Origin: Halogeometricum borinquense DSM 11551
GTDB lineage: Archaea > Halobacteriota > Halobacteria > Halobacteriales > Haloferacaceae
NCBI RefSeq assembly: GCF_000172995.2
Contig: NC_014732.1
Location: forward strand, 150,001 to 182,000
Length of the DNA stretch: 32,000 nucleotides
Reading direction: 5' to 3'
In this document: in pieces, positions 17,177-32,000 of the stretch
Layout of the letters: each line of letters begins with the position of its first letter
Position numbering within the stretch: position 1 is the first letter of the stretch
Program-made: the position numbers and the translations under genes
Notes under the pieces: generated by a model
Told to the model about the DNA's origin: nothing
Database searches by the model: none
Seen by the model: only the letters and a program-made list of their open reading frames with translations

Positions 17177-18085
17177 CTATGCCCGTTCACGATCTAGCCA
17201 GTCGGCCGTCCGCACGGCCAGTTCCCGAAGGTCGCCGTTGTCGTACCGTTTTGCTGCGCTACGGAGTGGTTCAACGGCAGTCGCGGAACCGATGTGCCCG
17301 AGCGCCGTTATCGAGCGTGCTGCCACGACCTCGCTTTCACTGTCGAGACACTCGACGAGCGGCGGAACTAACGCCGCCGTGTCAACCGCCTCCATCTGAC
17401 CGATGCGCCCGAGAATCTCTGCGGCACACGCGACAACGTTCAGGTCTTCGGCCGTGAGCGCATCCATGATCGCAGGTGCGTACGGTGCGATAGCGGCCGG
17501 ATCACGGTCGGCAATTTCGATGAGGAGATTCCCCGCGGTCGCTTGGACGCTGTACTGCTGGAACTGCTCACCGTGGCTGACCGCAGCGAACTGCCTTTGA
17601 AGCGGGTCAGCCATCGTCCCGGTGAGTTCTGTCGCCTCGCTGGTCGGGTCAGTGATGTCGGCTCTGAGTGCCTCCAGCAACGGCTCGGGGTGACTGGTGA
17701 ACCACTCGGGATGCTCGGCACCGATTGTCTGGACAGCCTTTGCGGCGAACAGTTGGACTCGTGGGAGGTCGTGAGTCAGCAATGTCGCCAACGTCTCCGT
17801 TGCCTCATTCAGTTCTGTCGGTTGCTGCTGTGCGACGACGTTCAGTACCGTAACCGCTTTCAGCGCGACGTTGACGTTCTCGTCCCGCGCAGCCGTAACA
17901 ATCGCCGGAAGGAGTGGAAGAACCACCTCGACATCTTCATCTGCGAACGTCACACAGACTGCGGCCGCGCGGTCGCGGACGAGATTTTCGTCGTCGGTTA
18001 ACGCCGCCCGTAAGGTGGGAATAGTAACGTCTCCCGGCGAGACGTCGTCCACATCGAGTTCCGTTATCGACTCTGTAGTGCTCAT
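17177..18085 (-). CDS. HEAT-repeat (PBS-lyase HEAT-like) protein
   Basis: The likely start is ATG 18085 (MSTTESITELD...). The protein is acidic and all-helical in appearance, with recurring ~30-aa units ending in A-x-x-(L/V)-G-x-IG-type motifs (AAKAVQTIG, AAEILGRIG, SITALGHIG). Confidence 0.8.
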   Translation of the reverse strand: MSTTESITELDVDDVSPGDVTIPTLRAALTDDENLVRDRAAAVCVTFADEDVEVVLPLLPAIVTAARDENVNVALKAVTVLNVVAQQQPTELNEATETLATLLTHDLPRVQLFAAKAVQTIGAEHPEWFTSHPEPLLEALRADITDPTSEATELTGTMADPLQRQFAAVSHGEQFQQYSVQATAGNLLIEIADRDPAAIAPYAPAIMDALTAEDLNVVACAAEILGRIGQMEAVDTAALVPPLVECLDSESEVVAARSITALGHIGSATAVEPLRSAAKRYDNGDLRELAVRTADWLDRERA

Positions 18086-18172
18086 CGCTCTCTCTGAGAG
18101 AATCGTATCAACCCAAATATAGGTGATGGTCAAATCGGAAGAACAGATGCGAATCGAAAGCGGCCCCGTCGG

Positions 18173-19321
18173 TCACCACTCGGCGACGCTTCCGTCCGGA
18201 TGCCGCCAAATCGGATTGTGCCAGTCAGTATCGTCCTGCGCTCGCGCGGCGATGGTGTCTCTGTCGGGCGTAATTCCGAGTCCCGGCTGGTCAGTCGGGA
18301 TGAGATAGCCGTCTTCGAACTCGAATCCCGAACCGGCGAGGTAGTTCGATCCGTTGTTTCGACGGCCGGATTCGATATCGAAGCCTTGGTCCTGAACGAG
18401 AAGGTTCGGCGTGGCGGTACTCACCTGCAACGAGGCGGCGAGTGCTATCGGGCCGAGCGGACAGTTCGGTGCAACTGCGACGTTGTAGGCTTCGGCCATG
18501 CTGGCGATACGGCGCACTTCCGAGATGCCGCCAGCGTGTGAGACGTTCGGCTGGATGACATCAACTGCGCCGTCCTCAAAGAGCGGTTTGAAATCCCACC
18601 GCGAGTACATCCGCTCTCCAGTGGCGATGGGCACAGTAGAATGCGTCGCAACGTTCGCCAACTGATCGCTGTGTTCCGGGAGTAGCGGTTCTTCGACGAA
18701 CATCGGCCGAACGCTTTCGAGTTCGGACAGCAACTGCTTTGCCATCGGCTTCGCCACGCGTCCCCGGAAGTCAACGCAAAGGTCAACCTCATCGCCGATT
18801 TCCTTCCGGACACCGCTGATCCGTTCGACGATTGTGTCGATGGCCGCTGGCGTGTCGATGTGCGCTGTTCGTTCGGTCGCGTCCATCTTGATGGCCGTGT
18901 ATCCCGCGTTGACGAGTTTTTCTGCTTCTGCGATGAGGTCTTCCGGGCGGTCGCCTCCAATCCACTGATAGACGCGAACCTTATCGCGCGCTTTCCCGCC
19001 TAAGAGTTCATAGACCGGCGCATCGTAGCGTTTTCCTTTAATGTCCCAGAGGGCTTGATCGATACCTGCCATCGCACTCATCAAAACGGGACCGCCGCGG
19101 TAGAACCCACCCCGGTACATCGCTTGCCAGTGATCTTGTATCCGTTGAGGGTCCTTCCCGAGAAGGTAGCCGTCCATCACCTCAGTCACTGCGGTCTTGA
19201 CGGTCTTCGCGCGACCCTCAACGATTGGTTCTCCCCACCCGACTAGCCCATCGTCGGTTTCGATCCGCAAGAAGAGCCAACGGGGCGGGACTTCAAACAA
19301 CTCGTAGTCGGTGATTTGCAT
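18173..19321 (-). CDS. dgoD: D-galactonate dehydratase-type enolase-superfamily sugar-acid dehydratase
   Basis: From ATG 19321 (MQITDYELFEVPPRWLFLRIETDDGLVGWGEP...) the 382-aa product is collinear with E. coli DgoD as I remember it. Shared blocks are PPRW.FLKIETD.G.VGWGEP, GGP.LMSA.AGIDQALWDIKGK, AGERM.SR.DFK, SHAGGI, PLGPIALAA and the C-terminal NP.WRH.D.SVAEW. The 112 codons upstream in the ORF track are Cys/Arg-rich and non-homologous. Confidence 0.93.
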   Translation of the reverse strand: MQITDYELFEVPPRWLFLRIETDDGLVGWGEPIVEGRAKTVKTAVTEVMDGYLLGKDPQRIQDHWQAMYRGGFYRGGPVLMSAMAGIDQALWDIKGKRYDAPVYELLGGKARDKVRVYQWIGGDRPEDLIAEAEKLVNAGYTAIKMDATERTAHIDTPAAIDTIVERISGVRKEIGDEVDLCVDFRGRVAKPMAKQLLSELESVRPMFVEEPLLPEHSDQLANVATHSTVPIATGERMYSRWDFKPLFEDGAVDVIQPNVSHAGGISEVRRIASMAEAYNVAVAPNCPLGPIALAASLQVSTATPNLLVQDQGFDIESGRRNNGSNYLAGSGFEFEDGYLIPTDQPGLGITPDRDTIAARAQDDTDWHNPIWRHPDGSVAEW

Positions 19322-19388
19322 GTGTTCGTCATTTAGCGTGAGAGAGATAAGGGTCGGGGTGAAATATCGGTCTGGACAGCGAAATAGT

Positions 19389-19405
19389 GTCCACAATAGA
19401 TGGAC
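19389..19405. promoter_or_regulatory. Candidate operator, GTCCAC-N5-ATGGAC, in the dgoD/iclR divergent promoter region
   Basis: GTCCAC AATAG ATGGAC matches 11 of 12 positions of the palindrome GTCCAC-N5-GTGGAC. It is embedded in the larger dyad GTGTCCA-N7-TGGACAC (19387-19407). Confidence 0.45.
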
Positions 19406-19460
19406 ACAGTGAGTTCCAGAGCAATCTACTGAACCGCGACGGCAGAACTGTCGGCAACAT

Positions 19461-19477
19461 GTCCATAGATAGTGAAC
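19461..19477. promoter_or_regulatory. Candidate degenerate operator, GTCCAT-N5-GTGAAC
   Basis: GTCCAT AGATA GTGAAC matches 10 of 12 positions of the same palindrome. It lies ~34 bp upstream of the IclR start codon. Confidence 0.3.
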
Positions 19478-19510
19478 AATTATATTGGTTGGCCGTAAGT
19501 TGCTGGTACG

Positions 19511-20266
19511 ATGAAGGCCTCCAACACAGCGATGGTGGGTGCGACGGAGACATCCTTCGATATCCTCCAAGCGCTTCGAGAGCTCGGTGGCGCAGGGGTT
19601 ACCGAGACAGCAGAGCACCTCGACATTCCGAAGAGTACCGCTCACAAGCACCTCCATACGCTGGCACAGTTAGGATACGTTACGAACGAAGACGGAACGT
19701 ACGACCTCGGACTCCTGTTCGTCGGACTCGGGCAGTACGTTCAAGCGAACAGTGCGTTGGTCCAAGCGACGGGACCGGTCGTCGAGCGTCTCGCTGAGAC
19801 GACCGAAGCGGTGGCCGGATTCTTTGTCGAACGCGGCGGTCGAGGCTTCGAGGTGAATCAAGTCACCGCTGGAACATCCCGCGACCTCGACGGCGGCCTC
19901 TCGAAATACCTCCATTCCACTGCGCCGGGAAAGGCAATTTTGGCGAAACTTCCCGACGAAAGAGTTGACGAAATCGTCGATCAACACGGCCTTCCGGCTC
20001 TGACGCCGCATACGATCACAACGCGGTCAGCGCTCGAAGACGAACTGGCGCGTATCCGGGACCGAGGAATCGCCTTCGACAGAGAAGAAAACCGAACAGG
20101 AATGCGAGGCGTCGCAATCCCGGTCGTCCACGACGGCATTCGAGGAGCGATGTACGTCGTTGGCCCGCAACGACGGTTGACAGGGAAGTGGTTCAACGAG
20201 AATATCCCGGGAATCATCATCAGTTCCGTCAAAACCGTCGAACAACGACTCCGCGAGCAGGACTGA
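19511..20266 (+). CDS. IclR-family transcriptional regulator
   Basis: An N-terminal wHTH (...TAEHLDIPKSTAHKHLHTLAQLGYV...) is joined to a C-terminal IclR-type effector domain (...ENRTGMRGVAIPV...). It is divergent from the sugar-acid dehydratase gene. Confidence 0.92.
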   Translation: MKASNTAMVGATETSFDILQALRELGGAGVTETAEHLDIPKSTAHKHLHTLAQLGYVTNEDGTYDLGLLFVGLGQYVQANSALVQATGPVVERLAETTEAVAGFFVERGGRGFEVNQVTAGTSRDLDGGLSKYLHSTAPGKAILAKLPDERVDEIVDQHGLPALTPHTITTRSALEDELARIRDRGIAFDREENRTGMRGVAIPVVHDGIRGAMYVVGPQRRLTGKWFNENIPGIIISSVKTVEQRLREQD

Positions 20267-20294
20267 CGATGGTACGTGGATAGCCACCCCGCAC

Positions 20295-20316
20295 ATTACA
20301 GAACTAATTCTGTAAT
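20295..20316. terminator. Perfect 9-bp inverted repeat just after the IclR stop (possible terminator hairpin or operator)
   Basis: ATTACAGAA-CTAA-TTCTGTAAT, 29 nt downstream of the stop at 20266. No adjacent oligo-T run is present, so terminator function is uncertain. Confidence 0.25.
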
Positions 20317-20369
20317 CTTGTGGCGGTTTTGTCGGAGACCAGTTTCGACTGTCAAGGAGTTCGCCTCGT

Positions 20370-20386
20370 GTCCACGAGTCGTGGAC
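20370..20386. promoter_or_regulatory. Candidate operator, perfect palindrome GTCCAC-N5-GTGGAC
   Basis: GTCCAC GAGTC GTGGAC, in the 330-bp spacer between the iclR and GNAT genes. Confidence 0.45.
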
Positions 20387-20461
20387 GAACTGGATAGGTT
20401 TCCGTGGTATGGGTCACGAGTGAGTGTTCTCACGCTGTGCTGGTCTCCTGAGACATAGTTC

Positions 20462-20478
20462 ATCCACGCAACGTGGAC
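20462..20478. promoter_or_regulatory. Candidate operator, ATCCAC-N5-GTGGAC
   Basis: ATCCAC GCAAC GTGGAC matches 11 of 12 positions of the same palindrome. It lies 92 bp downstream of the previous copy and ~120 bp upstream of the GNAT start. Confidence 0.45.
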
Positions 20479-20597
20479 AACCCTCGGCGTCAGTACTGGT
20501 GGTTCGAGAATGCGCTATATGACCTGATACGACTGAATACCCACCCTTCACGGTTGTTATGCGGTAGATTTTTTATCTCGGTTTGATACTGTTTGGT

Positions 20598-21569
20598 ATG
20601 ACAACTAGTGTCGAAAGGCTAGTCAGTCGAGAGGAGATATTCGAGGGTATCGACGTTTGGAATCGTCAGCATCCCGACTTTCGAATCTCCGACGCACTTA
20701 TCGAGCAGAATCTCTTTGCACCGCTTCCGGATATCGAAGTCCGTTGCTATGGTGGATATGATGAACACGAACTCGTTTCGTTCGCGGTCCTCAAACAACT
20801 CGACAGTCCAGTACGGGAATTTGAGGACACTGACACGGCGTGGCTTTCGTTGTTCGCATTCGAACCAGACTCCGAACGAGCGCGAACACTCAGCAAAGAT
20901 CTACTGACGACCGTCGTGGATAAACACGTCGCCGCTGACCACTCAACGCTACATTTCGGCTGTAGCCCCCAGAACTTTGTGTCTGGAGTTCCGTCAACGT
21001 TCCCGGAACCGTATCGAAATGTGCTTCGTGATGTTGGGTTCGAATCCCAACAAACAGTGTACGATCTGAGTCGAGCGATTACGAGGTTCGACGACCCGGC
21101 TACCGTAGAGTCGGTCGGACGCGAATTGGAGACGCTCCGTGTAGAACGGGCTACTGGATCCGAGGCAGATCTGCTGTCGTTCCTCGAAGATCAATTTCCG
21201 GGGCGCTGGTACTACGAAGCGCGCAATATCTGTCGTATCCCCGGTGGAGCGGCCGACTACTGGCTGCTCCGCTGGGACGGTGATGTTGTTGGCTTCGCTC
21301 GTAGTAATCGCTGGGATGGATCGTATCGGGGACCGAACGTCAACTGGGGATGGCGTTTGTCCAACGTGTACTGTGGTGTTGGCCCGCTCGGGATCCACGA
21401 AGAGCAGCAAGGTCGCGGATGGGGGTTGTTCATGATCACGAAAATCGTACAGCGGCTGAAACAGGACGGATACGACACGATGGTTATCGACTGGACCGAT
21501 ATTCCGGGATATTACGAAAAGCTCGGGTTCGAAAGATGGATCTCTTACGAACGAATGGCAAGAGAATAG
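20598..21569 (+). CDS. GNAT-family N-acetyltransferase-like protein (C-terminal GNAT domain, N-terminal degenerate domain)
   Basis: ATG 20598 (MTTSVERL...) sits ~25 nt downstream of TATA-like TTTTTTATC. The ORF track start at 20583 is a TTG. The C-terminal ...GVGPLGIHEEQQGRGWGLFMITKIVQRLKQDGYDTMVIDWT...YYEKLGF fits GNAT motif A (Q/R-x-x-G-x-G/A) and the tail. Confidence 0.78.
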   Translation: MTTSVERLVSREEIFEGIDVWNRQHPDFRISDALIEQNLFAPLPDIEVRCYGGYDEHELVSFAVLKQLDSPVREFEDTDTAWLSLFAFEPDSERARTLSKDLLTTVVDKHVAADHSTLHFGCSPQNFVSGVPSTFPEPYRNVLRDVGFESQQTVYDLSRAITRFDDPATVESVGRELETLRVERATGSEADLLSFLEDQFPGRWYYEARNICRIPGGAADYWLLRWDGDVVGFARSNRWDGSYRGPNVNWGWRLSNVYCGVGPLGIHEEQQGRGWGLFMITKIVQRLKQDGYDTMVIDWTDIPGYYEKLGFERWISYERMARE

Positions 21570-21770
21570 AATGCGCGAAATCAGTCTGTGTCTCTCAGTA
21601 ACAGTAATACCGAATAAATATAATTAGACTTTTAGATTTGGTGCGAGTTTGTGAATTTCGGGATCAGATAGGCAAGTGGATACATCCCAAATATTGGAAA
21701 CATATACAAATAGATTAGCCACACACAGCCACAATTCTTAATTATTAAGTATGTATATTGTTCGAATACT

Positions 21771-22436
21771 ATCTGCTGGTGAGAGATAGCTCGAAAACCC
21801 GAGTACTGTCTGCAAAGTAGTAGTATTGAGCAGATATACGACCAGATAACGATGGTACTGGGTGAAATAGCCCTTTCTCAGAGGGTTGTCGGTCGTTTCG
21901 GATTCCAATTATAGGTTGAACAGGCGCAATACCACGCCGTTCACGGTGTGGATACGCGCCGTCACTTGTGGTGACGGCCACCGTTGAAATGCTTTTCCGA
22001 GTTCCCTACCGTGATGTTTAACTGACAGGCGAGCGTAGTAGCCGATAGGAATCGGTCGGAACGGAGCGGATTCCGAACCGTCCTTCGGAGGCGGCCTGTC
22101 CGCCCATGTAACGAGGCAGTATCCGAAAGGGCAGTCGGTGAACGCACATTCCAGAAGAGTGTGTCGACGTGCCGACTGCTGAAAGCGAGCACCACGATAC
22201 CCCCGACTCCACTGACACCTGCTGGCGTCCCTGTGGCAAAAACAACACTGGGACGCCGTACATGGTCAAGGATAGGGGTAACGGCCACTTGGCATGGCCA
22301 GCAGTCCACCAGTCCAACACCGTGGGACTACCCGTACCCGAAAGGGCTGGTAGTCCGCCGATTGGACTGCGAACCTGAAACTCCCACCGCTCGGGATTCC
22401 TCCGCGTTCACGCGGAGGAGGATGTCAAACTCTCAC
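21771..22436 (+). ncRNA. Candidate large structured RNA or non-coding structured element of unknown family
   Basis: The segment is GC-rich and sits in an AT-rich gap. It has no acidic ORF, and all ORFs here are basic, Cys/Trp/Arg-rich and spread over several frames. Dense stems are present, given as + strand 5' arm/3' arm. 21771-21777/21829-21835 (7 bp). 21923-21927/21956-21960, enclosing 21932-21939/21944-21951 (8 bp, loop TTCA, one G-U). 21961-21965/21971-21975. 22053-22061/22071-22080 (9 bp, 1-nt bulge). 22090-22094/22100-22104. 22131-22140/22170-22179 (10 bp including 2 G-U). 22224-22231/22250-22257 (8 bp). 22283-22287/22295-22299. 22311-22317/22362-22368, enclosing 22325-22332/22349-22356, enclosing CCC-GAAA-GGG (22337-22346). 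22397-22406/22411-22420 (10 bp, loop TTCA). The G-U pairs and GAAA loops favour the + strand. AT-rich TATA-like stretches lie at 21737-21760. The boundaries are approximate. Confidence 0.4.
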
Positions 22437-22911
22437 TCTACTCTACGGCAGTAATCTGGAGATGCTTTCCGGGAGCTACGTAAGAACACAATTCTCTATA
22501 AGTCCTAGTTGTACTGCATGATTATCCAGCATTCGTTTCCAGAGCGGTAGCTTCCAATTGGTATAGAGGTGTATTCTAACACCTGTAATAGGAGATACAG
22601 ATGATGCGGAGAGTTCTAACACGTAATAGAGGCACGCATCGAATCAGAACCAACTCATGGCCTGATAGCACACAGAGGTCGGCAGTAATTCGAATATGAA
22701 CCGTGTTCTGTGTGATGTCAGACAACAGTGGTTATCTCAAGAGGAACATATAATACAGTACTCCCAATTTAGAAACCGCTCAAACAAACGAGTAACCGGC
22801 TGTCTGTCCGAATCGGACAATTCTGTACAGACATCTTGCTTGATAAAGAACTCGACAGCTACTCAGTACAAACCGCATCCTTTTTGTTTTAGGTACCCCT
22901 AAAATCTGGTA

Positions 22912-23079
22912 ATGGCCGCTGGAACTCAGTCATACTCCGAGGAAATCTCGGACCCAGAACACCCCTCGACCCCCGAGATATCTGTCTGTGAGAGCTGCCC
23001 CGGCAAATCAGTTTTCATCGAAGACGGGAATACCGACGGCTGGATCTCCAGCGACATGACTGTTGACGTAACTCGGTGA
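22912..23079 (+). CDS. Small acidic CxxC protein (55 aa), hypothetical; below the ORF-track length cut-off
   Basis: Hand translation gives MAAGTQSYSEEISDPEHPSTPEISVCESCPGKSVFIEDGNTDGWISSDMTVDVTR*. T-rich TATA-like sequence (TTTTTGTTTTAG) lies ~25-30 nt upstream of the ATG. The gene ends 9 nt before the next gene. The CxxCPG motif and acidic composition resemble the small haloarchaeal CPxCG-related zinc-finger-type proteins. Confidence 0.55.
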   Translation: MAAGTQSYSEEISDPEHPSTPEISVCESCPGKSVFIEDGNTDGWISSDMTVDVTR

Positions 23080-23088
23080 GTAACTACA

Positions 23089-23391
23089 ATGTCCGACTCA
23101 AACGAAAGTGCTGACACGGAAAGCGAACGAACGACGATTCGGTCCGGACGTGAGTTCGAACAGGAGTACCGCCTTGACGCGAGCGAAGCGGGGAAATTTC
23201 TAATCAATCTCGGCGAACAGCTTCGCGATGAAGACGAGCTAACGATTTCCACCGAAAAGTGGGAGCTCCCGTTTGCGTTCGGCGAGCCGATCGAGTTGGA
23301 AATTGATTTTGACGGAGTTGGGGATCCCGAACTCGAAGTCGAACTGTCGCTACCGGGACGAACCGATGAAAAAGCGCCTGATATAGAGTAG
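23089..23391 (+). CDS. Amphi-Trp domain-containing protein
   Basis: A 100-aa, very acidic protein with a central ...TISTEKWELPFAFGEPIELEIDFDG... Trp flanked by charged segments. This fits my recollection of the amphi-Trp domain family. Confidence 0.75.
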   Translation: MSDSNESADTESERTTIRSGREFEQEYRLDASEAGKFLINLGEQLRDEDELTISTEKWELPFAFGEPIELEIDFDGVGDPELEVELSLPGRTDEKAPDIE

Positions 23392-23405
23392 CCACCGTAG
23401 AAGCT

Positions 23406-23951
23406 TCACTTCGTCGCGGATTCGAGCACGAGCGTGTCGTCTTCGAGGTAGTGGTCGATGACGTGCGCGTGTTCTTCTATGTCCATGAGTTGCTCTCGGA
23501 GCATCTCACCGGTTGCGTAGTCGCCAAGGCCCTCGATGAGTTCGATGTGTTCTCTGTAGCTCTCGATGATGTCACCGTACATTTCGAGGTCGTTCGAGAG
23601 CGACGTCCGGATGTCGTAGACATCCTCGTCTTCGGCTTCCACCGTTGCGGCCTCCGAGAGTGCGGTCATACTGGCGTGTGGGACACCACCGAGCGTCTGA
23701 ATCCGTTCGGCGACATCGTCAGCCGCGTCCTCGACGTCCTCGTAGGCTTCCTGGAGGAAAATGTGAATATCGCGGTGTTCAGCGCCCTCGACGTTCCAGT
23801 GGTGTTTGTGTAGTTGGTGGTAGAGGACGTACGCGTCCGCGAGGTCGGTGTTCAGCGCGTCTACAATCTGTTCTACTTTGTCTTCATCGAGTCGTACAGG
23901 GTTCTCGCCAACGGTTCCTTCTTGACGGCGAACGGTCTCTTGTGTGCTCAT
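23406..23951 (-). CDS. dpsA: Dps-family ferritin-like DNA/iron protection protein
   Basis: The likely start is ATG 23951 (MSTQETVRRQEG...). Dps blocks are ...LYHQLHKHHWNVEGAEHRDIHIFLQEAYEDVEDAADDVAERIQTLGG.P... and ...GDYATGEMLREQL... The protein is very similar in pattern to Halobacterium DpsA. Confidence 0.93.
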   Translation of the reverse strand: MSTQETVRRQEGTVGENPVRLDEDKVEQIVDALNTDLADAYVLYHQLHKHHWNVEGAEHRDIHIFLQEAYEDVEDAADDVAERIQTLGGVPHASMTALSEAATVEAEDEDVYDIRTSLSNDLEMYGDIIESYREHIELIEGLGDYATGEMLREQLMDIEEHAHVIDHYLEDDTLVLESATK

Positions 23952-24285
23952 TGCACGCAGTTGTTGGTTCGGAACCCTCTTAATACTTTCATCGATCAAA
24001 CAATTTTTCGCGTTGCCTAAAACACCACAATCGTACAGTAAATTGGTCTGTGGCGGAGTCTAGTGTATTCTCGAATTCCATGTGTCGATATTTCGAGTGC
24101 AATACGGTACGTTGATCGGGAAATGTCGTATCATCTTGGAACTCACAGATTCACGTTCAGCGTTCCGATTCTCGGACGTGCAATCAACAGGAGTTCCGAC
24201 TGGGGGGATTGCAGGGCCCGAAGAACGGGAGCGAAATACTCGCAAACGAACTTTCCAGTCTCTACCACCGGCATCACTCAAGATC

Positions 24286-24669
24286 TTACTTACATTCTGG
24301 ATAGGCCTCATCTGCCTGAACGCGGTCTTTGGCAGCGAGTTCAAGATAGGGCTTCAAAGCGTCTGCCCTCTCTTCGAGTTCGATCAGTTGTTGGTCTGCA
24401 TCGAACGTAAGTACACCAGCGTCATTGAGTTTCGAGAGGTGCGTATGGTAAAGAGACGTGACCGTTCGCTCACGATCCTCAGCAGTCGTCGTCTCGCACG
24501 CAACGAGTTGGTCGGCTAGTTCTTGCAGCCCGATAGTACCGGCATGATCCATGAGAAATCGTAGAACGTCGCGTCGCTGCCTACTTATGAGTAGGTCAAA
24601 CGCTGTATCTGGAGGAAACGCATTGCTGTGTGTATCTGGCTCTGACCAGTCTCTCTCTCGTTCGGTCAT
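24286..24669 (-). CDS. Winged-helix (ArsR-like, haloarchaeal DUF7344-type) transcriptional regulator
   Basis: ...AFDLLISRQRRDVLRFLMDH...LQELADQLV...SLYHTHLSKLNDAGVL... is the characteristic haloarchaeal HTH pattern. Confidence 0.78.
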   Translation of the reverse strand: MTERERDWSEPDTHSNAFPPDTAFDLLISRQRRDVLRFLMDHAGTIGLQELADQLVACETTTAEDRERTVTSLYHTHLSKLNDAGVLTFDADQQLIELEERADALKPYLELAAKDRVQADEAYPECK

Positions 24670-24839
24670 TATATCGTGTGTTATCTGGGACCGTCGAAAG
24701 TTGGGTTACTAGCGTACTAGCGATAGCGGATTGAATAGTCCAGTTGGGCAATAGATGTAGTGCTTCAGAGTGATCGGAGGGTATGCAGTCAGAGAGGAAT
24801 GCTCAGTCTCGCTGCATCACAAAAGAAGCACCGAGTGAC

Positions 24840-25073
24840 CTATGATTCAGTATTGAGATCTAATCCGCCGACTGCATCTTCCAGCCCATCCGCGTCAGTC
24901 GACGTTTTGACGTACTCAGAAAGAGATTGGTGTTCGTGATATTCTTCTAGGTCGTCAGTCCGCTGGAGACGAGATTCGTTCTGTTGCTCTGTTATCGTTG
25001 ATTCGCCAGTAATCGCAACGAACAGATCGCGGTACTTCTGACTCCGCTGTTGCTCGGTCGTTTTTTCGCTCAT
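24840..25073 (-). CDS. Small acidic hypothetical protein (77 aa)
   Basis: In the ORF track. Acidic composition is consistent with a real haloarchaeal protein. The start ATG overlaps the stop of an upstream 42-codon ORF (TAATG). Confidence 0.55.
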   Translation of the reverse strand: MSEKTTEQQRSQKYRDLFVAITGESTITEQQNESRLQRTDDLEEYHEHQSLSEYVKTSTDADGLEDAVGGLDLNTES

Positions 25074-25201
25074 TATCCCACCACGCCCCCGAGCGCTTCG
25101 ATTCTCACGGAGATGTTGTAGGTCACTTGGTAGTCAAGGCTGTTCTGGGAGTTGTTCGTTATCTCGGCGTTGAGTACTGAGTGAGGCTGGTAGTTGCTCA
25201 T
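25073..25201 (-). CDS. Possible 42-aa small ORF, translationally coupled to the 77-aa gene
   Basis: Hand translation gives MSNYQPHSVLNAEITNNSQNSLDYQVTYNISVRIEALGGVVG*. The stop TAA (25075-25073) overlaps ATG 25073-25071 of the next gene. TATA-like TCTATATTTT lies ~30-40 nt upstream of ATG 25201. The composition is Asn/Ser/Gln-rich and barely acidic, which is atypical for a haloarchaeal protein. Confidence 0.3.
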   Translation of the reverse strand: MSNYQPHSVLNAEITNNSQNSLDYQVTYNISVRIEALGGVVG

Positions 25202-25298
25202 TGTGCCAGTCTCACATCCGCAGAGGACGAAAATATAGACAATATCTAGAAGACTAGTGACCCACCGATGACCACTCGTCTGATAACGTCAGCCACAC

Positions 25299-27707
25299 CT
25301 AGTCGAACAGTCCAATCTCATCGATCTGTTCCAGAACCTTCCGAGTCGCCTTCCGCACGTGGAGGTAGAACGTCGGTGACGTGATCCCGAGCGCATCGGC
25401 GAGTTCATCACCGGTCGAACAGCGTGGCGATTCGAAGAAGCCGGCGCGGTAGGCGAGTTCCAGAACCTCACGTTGGCGGTCGGTCAACAGTTCGTCAAGT
25501 GCGTCCTGTGTGAGATTGATCGACCGAACTGGGCGGTCAACCGAACGCTTGGCGATGAAAGTCGTATCCGGGTACGCTGCTTGAATTCCGGAGATGATCT
25601 TGCGGCTATCCGCATCCGGGGCAATCTCTCCGACAACGGTTTCGTCACCGCTCTCGATGATTGCGGATGTCACAGTCGCACCGTATTCCAGCAGCGTCGT
25701 CACCGGTGACTGACTCACCTTGTATTCGACCGTGCCGGACGTTCCGGTCGCATCGACGACACGGGGATTTTCGACCACCGGCGAGGACGAGAGCTTCGTT
25801 GCTACCGCTTCGGGTGACACTCCATCAACCGACGTATAGCAGAGGTATGCGTTTTCAGAGGTGGGTACGATTGTTTTGAGTTCGAGCCGACAGTCGAGTT
25901 CCTCGCTTACCCGAACGAAGATCGATTCCGCACTTGACGTCTTGAACTCCAGTTCGACGACGGTATCCGTATGAAGGAGCCGTTCGTTCTCTGCGGCGTA
26001 GATTGCGTGCCCGATACGTTCCCCGAGTTCACGAAGCAATCCTTGCTCGTATTCGTCAAACGCGTTCGGCCGGTCCGAGTAGACCCCGATCACACCGTAA
26101 ACAGTTCCATCAAAGGCAACCGGGATGGCGGCTGACGATTGATATCCACCATCGAGCGCATTCTTATGCAACGATTCCGATAACGGATCAGTGAGGATAT
26201 TCCGGGCTGCTTGGACATCGCAGGAGTGGACGGCCCGGCCGACCGGTCCCCGAACCGAGTCACCCTCGTTAGTTGTCACCGCAAAGTCGTCGAGACACTC
26301 GTCTTCGATTTCAGCCCACTCCTGTGGGGTCACTTGTTCACGTTCCGGAATATAGTCGCCGTACCACGCAAACAGGTAGGCATCGGACGCCGCTAACTGC
26401 TCGCAGACCACCTGTTCGATTTCGTCTCGTGTTGGGGCCTGCGCGAGCGCTCGATTGAGGGGGCGAAGGCTGTCTGTGATTTGCTTAACGCGTTCGAGTG
26501 CGACCCGTTGCCGTTCGAGTGTGCGCTCGCGCTCTTTTTGGTCGGTGATATCAGCACTCACTGCGACGAACCGCTCGATCTCTCCGTCATCGTCTGTCAC
26601 TGGCGCGATCGTCTGATTAACGACGTATCGTTCGCCGGTCTTCCGCTGATTGGTCACTTCGCCCTGCCACACCTCACCCGAACGGATCGTTTCCCAAAGG
26701 TCCGCGTAGAACTCGTCGTTGTGCTCTCCGGAGCTAAGAAGTCGTGGCGTCTCGCCGCAGGCTTCTTCCTCCGAGTAGCCGGTGATATCCTCAAACGCTG
26801 GATTAACGTACTCGATGGTACCATCTGTATCAGTCATATAAATCGAGTGACCTGCTTGCTCAACTGCCTCGCGGAATGCCCGCAATCGCTCTTCGCGTTC
26901 CTTACGTTCAGTGATGTCCTCGGCGACGCCATCGATGTAGACCTCTCCCTGTTCTTCCCGCCTGATCGCCGTGATTGACGTCCAAATCGTCTCACCTGTC
27001 GCAGTTTGTACTTTCAGTTCTTCGTCCGATATAACGCCGTCCTCACGTAGCCGTTCCTGGAAGATCTGCCGCTCGTCTGGATCGGCGTAGAAATCCGCAG
27101 GGCCTTGCTGGAGGAGAGCCTCCATCGACGTGACGTCGAGCATCTCTCGTAACGCTGTATTCCCCTCGACGAAGGTGCCACCGGAACAGGCCTCCGTTCG
27201 GTAAATTCCCTCCGGGAGGTGCGTAATTATATCTTCGTAGCGCTCGAGTTCGTTCCGGCGTTTTTCTCGGTCGGTGTTGTCCCGGAGTATCCCCGTGAAG
27301 AGCCGTTGGCCGTCGTGGCTGTGTTCTCGAAAGCGAATTGAAACTGGGACCTCGTGGCCGTCTTTGTGTCGCGCTGGAAAGTCAACGTCGTCCCAGTCCA
27401 TCTGGCGTTCGCCTGTTTCGATGTACTGTTGGAACGCCCGCGTGTGCTGTTGGTCAAGTCGATCAGGGACGAGCGTGAGCAGCGGTTGGCCGACTAGCTC
27501 GTTCGGTTGGTACCCGAGGATACGTTCGACTGCCGGGTTAGCAAAGACGATTGTGCTGTCTTCATCTACTGTGAGAAGACCCTCCGATGTGTTTGCCACG
27601 AGCGCTTGACAGAACTCCGTGGCATCGACATCGAGAGGAGATGTAGTAAAAACGCTCTCGAGGTCCCCACCCCACTTAGAGAACGAATTCTCACTCCGAT
27701 TAGTCAT
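25299..27707 (-). CDS. Bat-type (bacterio-opsin-activator-like) regulator: multiple PAS/PAC, GAF-like and C-terminal HTH-10 domains
   Basis: 802 aa. PAS/PAC-like blocks are ...IVFANPAVERILGY..., ...ITERKEREERL..., ...IEYVNPAFEDITGY... and ...DITDQKERERTLE... A GAF-like middle region follows. The C-terminal HTH-10 is ...LTDRQREVLELAYRAGFFESPR...LADALGITSPTFYLHVRKATRKVL... Confidence 0.93.
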   Translation of the reverse strand: MTNRSENSFSKWGGDLESVFTTSPLDVDATEFCQALVANTSEGLLTVDEDSTIVFANPAVERILGYQPNELVGQPLLTLVPDRLDQQHTRAFQQYIETGERQMDWDDVDFPARHKDGHEVPVSIRFREHSHDGQRLFTGILRDNTDREKRRNELERYEDIITHLPEGIYRTEACSGGTFVEGNTALREMLDVTSMEALLQQGPADFYADPDERQIFQERLREDGVISDEELKVQTATGETIWTSITAIRREEQGEVYIDGVAEDITERKEREERLRAFREAVEQAGHSIYMTDTDGTIEYVNPAFEDITGYSEEEACGETPRLLSSGEHNDEFYADLWETIRSGEVWQGEVTNQRKTGERYVVNQTIAPVTDDDGEIERFVAVSADITDQKERERTLERQRVALERVKQITDSLRPLNRALAQAPTRDEIEQVVCEQLAASDAYLFAWYGDYIPEREQVTPQEWAEIEDECLDDFAVTTNEGDSVRGPVGRAVHSCDVQAARNILTDPLSESLHKNALDGGYQSSAAIPVAFDGTVYGVIGVYSDRPNAFDEYEQGLLRELGERIGHAIYAAENERLLHTDTVVELEFKTSSAESIFVRVSEELDCRLELKTIVPTSENAYLCYTSVDGVSPEAVATKLSSSPVVENPRVVDATGTSGTVEYKVSQSPVTTLLEYGATVTSAIIESGDETVVGEIAPDADSRKIISGIQAAYPDTTFIAKRSVDRPVRSINLTQDALDELLTDRQREVLELAYRAGFFESPRCSTGDELADALGITSPTFYLHVRKATRKVLEQIDEIGLFD

Positions 27708-27792
27708 TGGCGGCTCTGAGAGACAAGCACTGAAAAGCTCGTTGGAGAATGTGTATTATTGCCGTTCAAGATGGATTTGAATATCTACCCGC

Positions 27793-27839
27793 GCGTTCAC
27801 GAATAGAACTCCGTTTCACGCACTGAAACAGCGTTCACG
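27793..27839. promoter_or_regulatory. Three direct repeats at an exact 19-bp period in the divergent regulator/oxidoreductase promoter region
   Basis: GCGTTCACG at 27793-27801, CGTTTCACG at 27812-27820 and GCGTTCACG at 27831-27839. The third copy lies in a small hairpin, ACAGCG-TTCA-CGCTGT (27828-27843). Confidence 0.3.
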
Positions 27840-27895
27840 CTGTCGAACGTGTCTTGGTAGGAGGGGACAACACCTGTGTCACCGTTCGGTATAGT

Positions 27896-29311
27896 ATGAC
27901 GGGGAAGTCAATCAGTGGCGAACCAACAGAACAGTTCGAAGCGGCGTTATACGGTGACCTGATTCGTCCCACCGATGCCGACTACGACGACGCCCGTGCG
28001 GTTTGGAACGGGATGATCGATAAGCATCCAGCGCTTATCGTGCGGTGTCAGGGTGTCGCTGATGTCGTTGCCGCCGTGAACTTCGCCCGCGAAAACGATG
28101 TTCTTGTTGCGGTTCGCGGTGGCGGACACAACGTTTCGGGGAACGCAGTCTGTGACGACGGCCTCGTTATCGACCTTTCTGAGATGACCGGCGTCAGAGT
28201 CGATCCAGCGGCGCAGACGGCGTGGGTCCAAGCCGGTGCCACGTGGGCCGACCTCGACCGCGAGACGCAACTATTCGGACTCGCGACACCCGGAGGCGTC
28301 GTTTCGGATACAGGCATTGCCGGGTTGACACTCGGCGGCGGAATCGGTCATCTCCGCTGCAAGTACGGTTTGAGCTGTGACAATCTTCGTTCGGTAGAAC
28401 TCGTCACTGCCGACGGCGAGTTCCTGACGGCCAGCACAGACGAAAACGAAGAGTTGTTCTGGGGTCTCCGCGGCGGCGGCGGAAACTTCGGTGTAGTCAC
28501 GGCGTTCGAGTTCGATCTTCACCCGGTTGGACCCGATGTCGCAACCTGTCTCGTGTTCTATCCGGGTGACCAGTTGCACGACTGTCTGCAAGCATACCGG
28601 GCGTACGCCGAATCGTCACCGGATGAAGTGAGTTCGCTCACGTTTGCGGGTGTGATGCCCGATGCGGAACTCTTCTCGGCGGACGTTCTACACGACTTCA
28701 AAATTGCGTTCATGGGCTGCTATGCGGGTCCCGCCGGAGAGGGAGAGTCCGCGCTCGCTCCACTCCGGGAGTTCGCCGAACCGATTGCTGACTTCAGCGG
28801 GACGATGCCGTACACCGACTTCCAGCAACTACTCGATGAAGATTACCCCGACGGAATGCGGTATTACTGGAAGTCGCTCTACCTCGACGGACTCTCCGAT
28901 TCGGTCATCGAACGGATCGGACACTGGGCTGAGGCAGCGCCTTCACCGCTCTCAACAGTCGATGTGTGGCAACTCGGAGGTGCAATTGCGGATATCGATA
29001 CCGATGAAAGCGCCTTCGCTGGCCGACACGCTCCGTTCCTCCTCGGCGTAGAGGCCAACTGGGAAGATTCCGAAAACGACGACGACAACGTGGCGTGGGT
29101 CCGCGACTGCCTCGATGATATGCGCCAGTTTTCGGACGGATCAGTCTATCTTAATTTTCCGGGCTTCTTCGAGGAGGGCGACGACATGATGCGGACCACG
29201 TTCGGCCCAGCGTACGAGCGGTTGGCCGAACTGAAAGATGAGTACGACCCAACGAACCGCTTCAGCCTCAATCAGAACATCGTACCGTCCGGAACTGCAC
29301 AGACAGAATAG
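27896..29311 (+). CDS. FAD-linked oxidoreductase (PCMH-type FAD_binding_4 domain plus BBE-like C-terminus)
   Basis: The likely start is ATG 27896 (MTGKSISG...). Supporting blocks are ...LVAVRGGGHNVSGNA..., ...GLTLGGGIGHL..., ...GLRGGGGNFGVVT... and the C-terminal ...YLNFPG...YDPTNRFSLNQNI, typical of berberine-bridge-enzyme-like FAD oxidases. Confidence 0.92.
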   Translation: MTGKSISGEPTEQFEAALYGDLIRPTDADYDDARAVWNGMIDKHPALIVRCQGVADVVAAVNFARENDVLVAVRGGGHNVSGNAVCDDGLVIDLSEMTGVRVDPAAQTAWVQAGATWADLDRETQLFGLATPGGVVSDTGIAGLTLGGGIGHLRCKYGLSCDNLRSVELVTADGEFLTASTDENEELFWGLRGGGGNFGVVTAFEFDLHPVGPDVATCLVFYPGDQLHDCLQAYRAYAESSPDEVSSLTFAGVMPDAELFSADVLHDFKIAFMGCYAGPAGEGESALAPLREFAEPIADFSGTMPYTDFQQLLDEDYPDGMRYYWKSLYLDGLSDSVIERIGHWAEAAPSPLSTVDVWQLGGAIADIDTDESAFAGRHAPFLLGVEANWEDSENDDDNVAWVRDCLDDMRQFSDGSVYLNFPGFFEEGDDMMRTTFGPAYERLAELKDEYDPTNRFSLNQNIVPSGTAQTE

Positions 29312-29567
29312 CACCAACTCTCTCCGCCGTCCCTCAGTTTTGTTCAGAGAGATTTCGACAGGTCACCATTCCGTTCTCGGATGAGTTCGACTGGAACGAG
29401 GTCCAATTACCAGTTGTCGTTTGAGAAAACCACGTGTTGCTCAGATATCGGGGGTAATCAATCGCACACGGCGATCCCTTAGTAACACATGTGTACGACT
29501 ACGAAAGGTGGGTTGCTCGGATAAGTGACGCGCTGTGCGCGCGTAACAAAGATTGGGGGCACAACCC

Positions 29568-30263
29568 ATGTCATCACTGAGACGGAAATTTCAGACAGCA
29601 CTAGCATTCAGTGTTGCATTACTAATCGTCGTCGCATTCACGGTTCAACCCGTTGCAGCCAGCCACCGCAACTCAGTCGAGGTTAGCCACAAGGGTGACC
29701 GAATCGAGGTCGAGACGAATGACTTCGATATCGACCTACGGTCCGATAGGGCTGAAATCGATACGCAAGACGTCGACTACGAGTTCGAAGGTGACCGTGT
29801 CGAGATCGACAGCGACGATCTGGACGTCGAAATTGATGGCTCGAACATCGAAGTCGAGGGGCGGGAGCATAATCTCGATTTCGAACTTCGTGACGACGGT
29901 GACGACCTCGATGTCGAAAGCGACGACTTCGACATCGAGTTCAGAGACGGCAGATGGGAGGTCGAGAGCCACGACAGTGACCTCGAAATCGAGAGCCACG
30001 GTGACAGCGTGGAGATCGAAGGCGACAGCTTCGACATCGAGATCTTCAGAGGCCACGTCGAGATCGACAGCAGAGACTTCGAGATCGACATCGAATCGGA
30101 TGGCGAAATAGAGATCGAGACGGACAACTTCGACGTCGAGTACGAGAATCCAACCCTCGACCTAGAGAGTGACGACCCCGACCTCGACCTCGAATTCGAC
30201 GGCCAGAACGCTGACATCGAAACAGACACCCTCGACATCAAGATGGCGTTACGGTCGGAATAA
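29568..30263 (+). CDS. Secreted or anchored hyper-acidic tandem-repeat protein (about 20 units of ~8 aa, hydrophobic residues alternating with Asp/Glu)
   Basis: ATG 29568 (MSSLRRKFQTALAFSVALLIVVAFTVQPVAAS...) gives an RRKF motif plus a hydrophobic signal or anchor. The remainder is units such as RIEVETND, FDIDLRSD, RVEIDSDD, LDVEIDGS, FDIEFRDG, SVEIEGDS and EIEIETDN. C/G-ending haloarchaeal codons are used in this frame. The other frames are open only because of the repeat. Confidence 0.75.
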   Translation: MSSLRRKFQTALAFSVALLIVVAFTVQPVAASHRNSVEVSHKGDRIEVETNDFDIDLRSDRAEIDTQDVDYEFEGDRVEIDSDDLDVEIDGSNIEVEGREHNLDFELRDDGDDLDVESDDFDIEFRDGRWEVESHDSDLEIESHGDSVEIEGDSFDIEIFRGHVEIDSRDFEIDIESDGEIEIETDNFDVEYENPTLDLESDDPDLDLEFDGQNADIETDTLDIKMALRSE

Positions 30264-30316
30264 CCAACACATCAGAGAGGTACCAACGCGTCAGGGCGCG
30301 TCGTCACTCGTTCTTT

Positions 30317-31246
30317 TTAACAAGATAGAAAGGAACTCAGTTTGAATATCGGCGACTGGCGAGACGCTCGTAGTGGTCTAAGTGTATGGGAACCAGTTTC
30401 GGGAGCGACAACGTCAGTGGACAGAATGCGCGTGAACGCGTTTCCGAGCGCGTAGTAGCGGGAATTGAACGGCCGAACAACTGCGAGTGCAGCCTTGGCA
30501 AGCGGTTTCGGAACGTGTGTAGTCTTCACCCGTCCGTCGAGCGTACGAGACGCAAGCGCCGCAATCTCGTCGTACGTAAACGTCTCCGGGCCGCCCACAG
30601 CGAACTCCTCACGGTCGTCAGAGACCGCATCGGCGCACGCTGCAGCAAGGTCCGCACCGTGAATAGGGTTGATACGCGCGTTCCCGTCACCGACGAGGAA
30701 TACTCGCGCCCGGCGGGCCATCTCGAAAAACTCGGTCATATCCGAGAAGTACCCGGTCGGTCGAACGACCGTCTGCGAGATTTCGGCGTCGTATAACTCA
30801 TCTACGAACTGCTCTCGCGGTTCCACGAGCGATCCCCAAAGTTCCGGGGCGAACACCGAAACGAACACGAATCGCTCGACGCCTGCATCGAGCGCTAAGT
30901 CGAGAAGGGTTCGGTTCGCCCCGTAATCAACCTCCCAGTGACTCGCCTGCTGGCGAGTCACACCGAGCGACGAAAAGACCACGTCAATTCCATCGCACAA
31001 ACCGTCGAGCGTGTCCGAATCCGTAGCCGTGCCGACGAAGAGGTCGTCGATGTCCGACCGCACCGCCGGTTCGAGAAACCGACCTGGTGTAGAGAGTTTT
31101 TCGACCGATTGCGGCCGCGAAAGCGCCCGCACCCAGCAGCCGCGACGTTTGAAGGCGCAAACCGCGTATCGGCCGAGATAGCCGGTTGCACCGGCGACCA
31201 ACACCCGCGTCGGATTCTCCTCCAAGGTATTTTCTATATTTTGCAT
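30317..31246 (-). CDS. NAD(P)-binding atypical SDR / NmrA-like oxidoreductase
   Basis: The N-terminal Rossmann fingerprint is RVLVAGATGYLGRY. At ~300 aa, with ...VVRPTGYFSD..., it fits NmrA/HSCARG-like atypical SDRs. Confidence 0.88.
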   Translation of the reverse strand: MQNIENTLEENPTRVLVAGATGYLGRYAVCAFKRRGCWVRALSRPQSVEKLSTPGRFLEPAVRSDIDDLFVGTATDSDTLDGLCDGIDVVFSSLGVTRQQASHWEVDYGANRTLLDLALDAGVERFVFVSVFAPELWGSLVEPREQFVDELYDAEISQTVVRPTGYFSDMTEFFEMARRARVFLVGDGNARINPIHGADLAAACADAVSDDREEFAVGGPETFTYDEIAALASRTLDGRVKTTHVPKPLAKAALAVVRPFNSRYYALGNAFTRILSTDVVAPETGSHTLRPLRASRQSPIFKLSSFLSC

Positions 31247-31300
31247 ATAGTGAATATTGTGTCGTCAGTGTATTAACGTGCTGGTGCGAACGGTCGGGTA

Positions 31301-31846
31301 ATGACGGAAGAGGCGTACGACGAGGCACGAACCGAAATTGCCGACGCGATGGCTCGGACGGCGGAACTGTACGGACTCAACAGAAGTTATGGGCGAGTGT
31401 ACGGATTCCTCTACTTCGCAGGTGGACCCAAATCTCTCGACGAATTAGCCGAGGAGACAGGATACGCGAAGTCCACGGTGAGCAACGCGATGGGAACGCT
31501 CGAACGGTATCACCTCGTCCACAGACGGTCGGCACCCGGCGAGGGCCGGAAGGTATACTTCGAAGCCGAAACGGATTTCTGGACTGTTCTCACGGAACTG
31601 TTCGAACGGGAGGGTCGCCGAGAGATACGTATCATGCGACGAGCACTGGAGAACGCACAGGAGACGCTCGAAGAGGCGCCGGAGACAGAGGAGACGAAGC
31701 GTGCCGAAGAGCGAATCGAACAACTCCAGCAGCTCTACCGACAGTCAGAACGCGTCCTCGAATTCTTCACCGAGGTTCCCATCGACGAACTTCTCGCGTA
31801 TATCTCCGAGTTTCGGAACCGAGACACCGCCACCCGCGACGACTGA
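31301..31846 (+). CDS. GbsR/MarR-type winged-helix transcriptional regulator
   Basis: ...YGRVYGFLYFAGGPKSLDELAEETGYAKSTVSNAMGTLERYHLVHR... is followed by a charged coiled-coil-like C-terminus. The gene is divergent from the SDR gene, separated by a 54-bp spacer. Confidence 0.85.
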   Translation: MTEEAYDEARTEIADAMARTAELYGLNRSYGRVYGFLYFAGGPKSLDELAEETGYAKSTVSNAMGTLERYHLVHRRSAPGEGRKVYFEAETDFWTVLTELFEREGRREIRIMRRALENAQETLEEAPETEETKRAEERIEQLQQLYRQSERVLEFFTEVPIDELLAYISEFRNRDTATRDD

Positions 31847-31897
31847 CGGCGCTTCGCCGGTCCTCGACTGAATTCCTACTCCCGATTCCTCCGGTTC

Positions 31898-32000
31898 TCA
31901 CCCACTTGTGAGATGGCCGCCGACGAGTTTGAGGTAGAGGAACGGCGCGAACCACTCTAGACCGGGTTCCACAGAGACGAGCATGAGTCCGACGAGGACA
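31898..32000 (-). CDS. C-terminal end of a hydrophobic (membrane?) protein; gene runs off the right edge
   Basis: Hand translation of the minus strand gives ...VLVGLMLVSVEPGLEWFAPFLYLKLVGGHLTSG*, with the stop TGA at 31900-31898. Only 34 codons are visible. Confidence 0.35.
   Translation of the reverse strand, partial: VLVGLMLVSVEPGLEWFAPFLYLKLVGGHLTSG

Follow-up and report, generated by a model that had tools for sequence, protein, structure and literature searches.

What is the GC-rich, hairpin-dense segment lying between a GNAT-like gene (20583-21569) and a small CxxC gene (22912-23079) in Halogeometricum borinquense DSM 11551? The DNA analysed here, referred to as the window, is the whole 32,000-nucleotide stretch of contig NC_014732.1 from 150,001 to 182,000, and a first-pass annotation of its letters proposed an undescribed large RNA of unrecognised family at 21771-22436. 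This proposal was not borne out, since the segment belongs to a type of mobile element that is multi-copy in other genomes, with IS200/IS605-type ends and HqIRS56 termini. On the sequence comparisons below, positions 21913-22428 are almost certainly a copy of an HqIRS56-type palindrome-associated transposable element (PATE), a protein-less relative of IS200/IS605 elements of the IS1341 type. The best explanation overall, held with good confidence, is a PATE copy carrying the guide-RNA scaffold of the nuclease TnpB. The structured-RNA locus is real, but it is no new kind of RNA, as both the element type and the kind of scaffold are already known. The limits of the element are as follows.

21909..21912, + strand: target tetranucleotide TTAT, the presumed transposon-adjacent motif (TAM) of the cognate TnpB, abutting the left end of the element
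21913..22428, + strand: element body, in all probability an HqIRS56-type PATE (non-autonomous IS200/IS605, IS1341-type), judged from sharp borders, multiple copies and matching termini
22425..22428, + strand: terminal tetranucleotide TCAA, the last bases of the element, from alignment of copies

The conserved unit (21909/21913-22428, about 520 nt) begins with TTAT followed by A, finishes with GTCAA and has no transposase open frame. BLASTN of plasmid records found the block 21909-22428 at 82-87% identity across many haloarchaeal genera (Natronorubrum, Natrinema, Halomicrobium, Halorientalis, Halobacterium, Haloarcula and others), in up to nine places per plasmid record or replicon and mostly unannotated. 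In the same search the last ~65 nt also matched the 3' ends of genes annotated as 'RNA-guided endonuclease TnpB'. The neighbouring genes of four fetched copies are unrelated between copies, and in a five-way alignment identity runs from TTATA to GGATGTCAA, beyond which the copies have nothing in common.

A 16-mer from the 5' part, scanned in one genome per species, gave 120 loci, many of them haloarchaeal, and borders were tabulated for 36 copies (27 gene-less and 9 with tnpB). TTATA stands at the left border in 35 of these, with unrelated sequence upstream; the sole exception, CTACA, belongs to a copy at the edge of its locus. TCAA ends 35 of the 36 copies, mostly within GGATGTCAA, the remaining copy being cut one base short, and the flanks diverge directly after TCAA. 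The pattern in 35/36 copies is thus an unrelated flank, TTATA followed by C or G, the body, GTCAA and a second unrelated flank. IS608 likewise terminates in TCAA. In the window copy the flanks (..CCAA before TTAT and ACTCTC.. after the right end) share no repeat, that is, there is no target duplication, and TTATA and GTCAA, the two termini, form no inverted repeat. The flank sequence at the insertion reads ...CCAATTAT on the left and ACTCTCACTC... on the right, which would be contiguous in an empty site.

A draft contig, AOHT01000040.1 (GCA_000337855.1, L125), matches the window at 100% identity across 4829 nt and begins at window position 22251, inside the element. A contig start at this point suggests an assembly break at a repeat and, indirectly, further near-identical copies in that genome. 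On the chromosome of Halorarius halobius two copies lie 4.6 kb apart in opposite orientation (L057:1872-2391, minus strand, and L057:6967-7402, plus strand); one is complete and one is without the first ~70 nt. BLASTN against phage records gave no match. Six viral-contig matches to the 16-mer GGATACGCGCCGTCAC were put down to chance, as none aligns with the element profile beyond 31 nt.

PATEs were defined in Haloquadratum walsbyi as elements without transposase, inverted terminal repeats or target duplication, which have near-terminal palindromes and ends like those of IS605/IS1341-type transposons and which arise via core deletions of IS605-type elements (Dyall-Smith et al. 2011, PMC3119063). 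HqIRS56 is 532-574 bp long and its wider type 466-688 bp (PMC3119063, Tables S8 and S9), so the size here (520 nt) is similar, and the window copy shares the lack of inverted terminal repeats, target duplication and transposase. The published HqIRS56 5' end is TTATA TGCTGAGCAGGCGCAATACCACGATCTTCAGGCCGTGGATACGCGCCGTCA... and its 3' end ...CCACCGCTCGGGATTCCTCCGCGTGAACCCGGAGGAGGATGTCAA (Table S9, PMC3119063); the corresponding termini in the window are TTATAGGTTGAACAGGCGCAATACCACGCCGTTCACGGTGTGGATACGCGCCGTCA and CCACCGCTCGGGATTCCTCCGCGTTCACGCGGAGGAGGATGTCAA. The two agree at almost every base over roughly 50 nt on the 5' side and 45 nt on the 3' side, the comparison being with the published termini only. 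Common to both are a 5' end with TTATA and ..GAGCAGGCGCAATACCACG..TTCAGGCCGTGGATACGCGCCGTCA and a 3' end with CCACCGCTCGGGATTCCTCCGCGT..ACGCGGAGGAGGATGTCAA. The HqIRS56 3' end matches that of the tnpB transposon ISHwa21, with the same TCAA end (PMC3119063), and the 3' end of the window copy also resembles ISHwa21. HqIRS56 is present in 19 and 23 copies in two strains, with 7/7 strain-specific insertions, and its empty sites keep 4 nt (PMC3119063), which fits a TTAT target.

Palindromes lie near both termini of the window copy (left 21932-21951, right 22399-22418), with TTCA loops and covarying stems. Alignment A1, made from 27 gene-less copies, contains four subfamilies (A to D). The window copy differs from published HqIRS56 in coming from another genome (it matches draft GCA_000337855.1) and in belonging to subfamily A, found mainly outside Haloquadratum. 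Copies from Haloquadratum J07HQW1 form subfamily D, and their middle part is strongly different from that of the window copy.

The same ends also enclose complete tnpB genes. In at least nine loci, unit positions 1-~65 and ~335/360-520 are separated to span 1.46-1.54 kb, and the elements so formed contain open reading frames (409-471 aa) in which CxxC...CxxC and NADVNGAENI motifs occur. The protein of one of them (L077, Haloarcula onubensis) matched the Pfam families OrfB_IS605 (1e-27) and Cas12f1-like_TNB (1e-19). Profile hidden Markov models (HMMs) of the gene-less copies were compared with tnpB elements, nine complete and two with internal deletions. Full-length elements match positions 1-~120 at their left end and positions ~328-520 in their last ~190 nt. 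Full-length IS1341-type elements such as those of L077, L056 (Haloterrigena sp. H1) and L037 (Haloquadratum J07HQW1) have the TTATA...GTCAA termini, left-end hairpin, TATA-box position and right-end scaffold in common with the window copy. They differ in their length (1.46-1.54 kb), in encoding a TnpB of about 410-445 aa and in being without the 22047-22180 part. To judge from these alignments, a hairpin-rich stretch of ~130 nt, seen in gene-less copies alone, takes the place of the tnpB gene between the retained ends.

Tblastn with three TnpB proteins found nothing of TnpB in the element beyond a 40-residue C-terminal remnant. The region is non-coding, with many + strand helices, as the first-pass annotation had described, and it is no decayed whole gene.

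22166..22309, + strand: weak C-terminal TnpB remnant (tblastn, residues 381-419 of L077 TnpB, 33% identity)

This match has an E-value of 5e-4 in a tiny database, and its frame contains GHLAWPAVH. Two internally deleted tnpB elements with the same ends were also seen, L058:959-1949 (991 nt) and L032:3951-5148 (1198 nt), whose open frames are without the N-terminal third to half of TnpB. Deletion intermediates thus exist, and it is plausible that these two are intermediates between full-length elements and gene-less copies.

The left end carries a hairpin and a candidate promoter.

21923..21960, + strand: left-end subterminal hairpin, GGCGC/GCGCC around CCACGCCG-TTCA-CGGTGTGG (21932-21951), from RNAalifold
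22017..22022, + strand: TATA-box-like TTTAAC, which aligns with the tnpB promoter of full-length relatives

The hairpin is common to tnpB-encoding elements, and its stem and TTCA loop resemble the right-end hairpin. In 8-9 copies, A1 pairs 29/38 and 31/36 within it have switched from G-C to C-G. The motif CTTTTACAA precedes the tnpB ATG by about 30 nt in full-length elements; CGTTTAAG is kept at the aligned position in gene-less subfamily A and less exactly in B. Transcription is predicted to start at about 22045-22052. An IStron-like arrangement (group I intron plus transposon) was considered for the 5' half and rejected, as there is no Rfam intron and the 5' end is an ordinary tnpB-element left end and promoter.

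The 3' part of the element holds the features that link it to TnpB guide RNAs.

22196..22428, + strand: omegaRNA/sotRNA-like scaffold, from Rfam sot0042 and HgcC matches and homology to TnpB-element ends; its parts are a hairpin (22196-22282), a hairpin (22283-22299), a branched stem (22301-22370), a hairpin (22382-22396) and the terminal hairpin
22399..22418, + strand: right-end hairpin CCTCCGCG-UUCA-CGCGGAGG, an 'RE-like tetraloop', from sequence and covariation
22429..22448, + strand: predicted guide segment ACTCTCACTCTACTCTACGG, from the layout of TnpB omegaRNAs, with an assumed length of 16-20 nt

At gathering thresholds Rfam gave nothing in the whole window, nor in five loci with full-length elements. 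With the cut-off relaxed to E ≤ 10, the interval 21500-22950 gave sot0042 (RF02656) at 22240-22419 (+) with 43.2 bits (E 1.6e-9), below the gathering score of 88 and with a poor fit to the 5' helix of the model. It also gave HgcC (RF00062) at 22350-22441 (+) with 26.2 bits (E 1.2e-3), below the gathering score of 50, the terminal hairpin and tail alone aligning well. The 3' end of the full-length L077 element scores 83.7 bits with sot0042; the model is thus narrow, since even this true tnpB 3' end from the same lineage does not quite reach 88. The first-pass annotation had found no family for the segment and named a significant Rfam match as evidence against its proposal; in substance there are two such matches, sot0042 and HgcC, although both lie below gathering. 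That it could not match the segment to RNase P RNA, SRP RNA, a group II intron or a cobalamin riboswitch agrees with the result here, as no RNase P RNA, SRP RNA, group I or II intron, riboswitch or other curated large RNA came up at E ≤ 10 over 21500-22950.

Members of the sot0042 and HgcC families derive from the 3' ends of tnpB genes of the IS1341 type and are now termed omegaRNAs, and haloarchaeal sotRNAs have been equated with TnpB omegaRNAs (Meers et al. 2023). In these RNAs the scaffold stops at the right end of the transposon and the adjacent flank is the guide (Meers et al. 2023). The element shares with TnpB omegaRNAs (reRNAs; haloarchaeal sotRNAs, methanogen HgcC) the 3' scaffold helices and the terminal UUCA hairpin, the stop at the transposon right end and a variable flank at the predicted guide position, where the counterparts of 22429-22448 are unrelated between copies. 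The right-end hairpin (GGATTCCTCCGCG-TTCA-CGCGGAGGAGGATGTCAA in DNA letters) has G-C to C-G flips at its loop-closing pair in 12/30 copies. In contrast to TnpB omegaRNAs, no tnpB overlaps the scaffold here, the first scaffold hairpin is longer (22196-22282, compared with about 30 nt in full-length elements) and the interior of the branched stem (22301-22370) is different.

Precedents for such RNAs exist. PATEs often encode omegaRNAs, usable only in trans by the TnpB of other elements (Meers et al. 2023). In Halobacterium salinarum a PATE-derived intergenic RNA carrying the same RE-like UUCA hairpin is transcribed and has an effect on growth, and the RE-like tetraloop motif has been described for sotRNAs, HgcC and one PATE-derived RNA (Gomes-Filho et al. 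2015, PMC4615843). VNG_R0052 (99 nt) and VNG_R6334 (275 nt) of H. salinarum, intergenic and shown to be transcribed (PMC4615843), are likewise fusions of an IS200/IS605 left end and right end with an RE-like UUCA hairpin. They are shorter, the window element adding a ~230 nt scaffold and a ~130-nt structured part.

The composition of the locus agrees with much of the first-pass description. The core of the gap is GC-rich (0.56-0.61) within AT-rich flanks (0.34-0.45), as had been described, and the extreme hairpin density noticed by eye is genuine, since 21880-22440 folds at -238.7 kcal/mol, far below 100 dinucleotide shuffles (-202.0 ± 7.2, z = -5.1). The minus strand of the same interval has a folding z of -4.9. 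Of the reported motifs, both GAAA loops (22125-22128 and 22181-22184) and, near 22338-22347, the CCC-GAAA-GGG cap can be read in the sequence, and the nested structure placed at 22311-22368 is recovered by RNAalifold at about 22301-22370. The proposed interval 21771-22436 does contain the conserved unit 21909-22428, but its first ~140 nt (21771-21908) are ordinary flank and its right limit lies 8 nt too far. The promoter suggested at 21737-21760 falls outside the conserved element. A helix between GTGAGAG (21779-21785) and CTCTCAC (22430-22436), suggested to close the whole structure, is rejected because both arms sit in flank that differs in every other copy; the 7-nt complement is read as chance. 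A tRNA/tmRNA scan detected none.

The helices themselves are conserved. RNAalifold on all 27 rows of A1 gave 58 pairs, 31 of them with compensatory changes. For counting, a structure derived from subfamilies A and B was scored on all 27 rows and compared with a slid control, in which the 3' partners were moved by 1-3 columns. Standard pairs fill 85.2% of cells (38-43% when slid), 58 pairs are altered on both sides (20-32 when slid) and the covariation score is 0.239 (~0.05-0.09 when slid). Covariation among homologues thus supports real helices. A1 helices 12, 14, 16, 17, 19, 21 and 24 each have 3-9 pairs altered on both sides; the long-range helices 5-7, with little or no compensatory change, are not relied on. 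Alignment A2 takes in 20 gene-less copies and 10 that are linked to tnpB, each over its last 200 nt. Its four specified helices (22283-22299, 22303-22368, 22382-22396 and 22397-22420) are 92.5% paired, against 41-51% when slid, and 12/25 pairs are compensated, indicating that gene-less copies keep the scaffold of the tnpB-linked RNA. Conserved helices hold 355 G:U cells and 140 A:C cells (2.5 to 1). This excess favours the + strand, which the first-pass annotation had also preferred, either as RNA or as the transposed DNA strand.

How the element might work can be proposed from the IS200/IS605 and TnpB literature and from general knowledge of IS608. A Y1 TnpA supplied in trans would recognise both end hairpins and excise and insert the element as single-stranded DNA, with the top strand moved 3' of TTAT. 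The retained tnpB promoter would give an RNA of about 400 nt, running from near 22045-22052 through 22428 into the flank. TnpB from a full-length relative elsewhere in the genome would bind the scaffold (about 22196-22428), with about 16-20 nt of flank (22429-22448) as guide, and the complex would cut TTAT-flanked empty sites, which would help the element to persist. By analogy with these systems, the element on balance probably supplies guide RNA in trans to a TnpB encoded elsewhere.

Several points weigh against a PATE that serves as a guide-RNA source. Neither tnpB nor tnpA occurs within the 32-kb window, so a TnpB or TnpA partner would have to be encoded elsewhere. No empty site for the locus was found, and hence the boundary may lie after TTAT or after TTATA (A at 21913). 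Searches aimed at other assemblies or an empty site had little yield: the 55-aa CxxC protein led solely to the contig identical to the window, the GNAT-like protein had no result on record and BLAST of a wider interval against plasmids matched nothing except the element. The Rfam scores are below gathering, as given above, and the promoter and transcription start are inferred from one alignment. Although 0/500 shuffles of A1 reach the observed values, shuffles overstate significance because the rows share descent, and the slid control is given more weight. Finally, the helices could be kept for a single-stranded DNA transposition intermediate rather than for RNA, and strand bias cannot separate the two, as G:T wobble is tolerated in DNA too.

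A first alternative is that the element is an inert fossil, an IS1341-type element which lost tnpB by internal deletion and whose hairpins persist only through the young age of the copies or through the needs of the single-stranded intermediate, with no RNA function. Core deletion is the known origin of PATEs (Dyall-Smith 2011), and the 991-nt (L058) and 1198-nt (L032) relatives and the C-terminal TnpB remnant all fit such a history, as do DNA hairpins at both ends, which serve IS200/IS605 transposition (PMC4615843). However, internal helices for which TnpA would have no use (A1 12, 14, 16, 17, 19, 21 and 24) show compensatory changes as well, and the layout is common to subfamilies A and B though their sequences differ. 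The tnpB TATA box and a complete omegaRNA scaffold are kept, and H. salinarum expresses related PATE RNAs, which influence its growth. An inert fossil is possible but unlikely.

Far less probable is a host-domesticated structured regulatory RNA of ~0.5 kb, a new family merely sharing its terminal hairpin with transposon RNAs, in line with the first-pass proposal. A folding z of -5, covariation over the whole length and a 22047-22180 part without TnpB-element homologue or Rfam match are what such an RNA might show. But the sequence is multi-copy with unrelated flanks and neighbours, has IS200/IS605-type ends at a TTAT target, is homologous to TnpB elements over roughly its first 120 nt and its last 190-230 nt and has the termini of the mobile PATE HqIRS56, for which strain-specific insertions are published.

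A frameshifted protein pseudogene other than tnpB is scarcely credible: open frames of 97-115 aa do overlap the region on both strands, but they vary in position and phase among copies of 82-87% identity, substitutions track base-pairing rather than codon positions and Pfam searches of the individual core frames gave no match at E ≤ 1 apart from one faint DUF3678 match below cut-off. 'ORF-free', as the segment had been called, is literally incorrect on account of these frames, although none (≤ 115 aa, with neither Pfam match nor conserved frame and position) is credible.

Within the preferred reading of a PATE with a TnpB guide-RNA scaffold, one feature is not explained by the published descriptions considered.

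22047..22180, + strand: middle part, three hairpins (22047-22084, 22086-22125 and 22130-22180), in gene-less copies only

By profile HMM no counterpart of unit positions ~120-~290 was detected in full-length tnpB elements. The three-hairpin layout recurs in subfamilies A and B despite many substitutions, and A1 helices 8, 12 and 14 have 2, 5 and 3 pairs altered on both sides, respectively. Subfamilies C and D are also hairpin-rich here, but conservation is claimed within A and B only, the MAFFT alignment of C and D to A and B being unreliable in the middle part.

A more speculative view, and a doubtful one, is that gene-less copies are not simply products of deletion but a lineage under selection, made up of mobile 'guide-RNA-only' genes with 22047-22180 as a functional module. 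The retained tnpB promoter would then give the ~400 nt RNA with 22047-22180 as its structured 5' part. The module might take over from the tnpB mRNA a part in the stability or processing of the omegaRNA precursor; alternatively it might compete for TnpB from full-length elements. If functional, the middle part would show how a guide RNA persists and spreads without its nuclease, an increment to TnpB biology but no new principle.

The practical value of the assignment lies in annotation, as the block is unannotated in most haloarchaeal records despite its presence in many genera and in several copies per replicon. The label HqIRS56-type PATE with an omegaRNA-like scaffold explains a recurrent GC-rich island in AT-rich spacers and also accounts for the break in the draft-genome assembly. 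The copies are a ready set of natural TnpB guide scaffolds unattached to a nuclease gene.

Some copies contain extra inserts of ~55 nt, each consisting of two short perfect hairpins (for example, CGAGAGAGC-GTC-GCTCTCTCG followed by CGAAAATC-TTG-GATTTTCG). They were seen at L001:3187-3242, L055:2969-3075, L048:2641-2695 (minus strand) and L012:4089-4143 and 4236-4284. The inserts occupy loops of the element's own hairpins, and in L055 one is nested in another (107 nt in total); the window copy is free of them. Their appearance is that of a tiny mobile repeat with PATEs as its target, reminiscent of the SMR-A repeats of Haloquadratum but half that size.

When the element is subtracted, about 820 nt of AT-rich spacer remain (21570-21908 and 22429-22911, GC 0.34-0.45), with no plasmid-record match and no credible ORF. 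This is an unusually long intergenic region for a haloarchaeon. Nearby genes encode a Dps/ferritin protein (23406-23999, minus strand), a DUF7344 protein (24286-24669, minus strand) and an 802-aa multi-PAS protein (25299-27707, minus strand). The GC content of window positions 18000-32000 is about 0.45-0.61, which is probably low for a haloarchaeon of this group; this may be a low-GC island or a plasmid segment.

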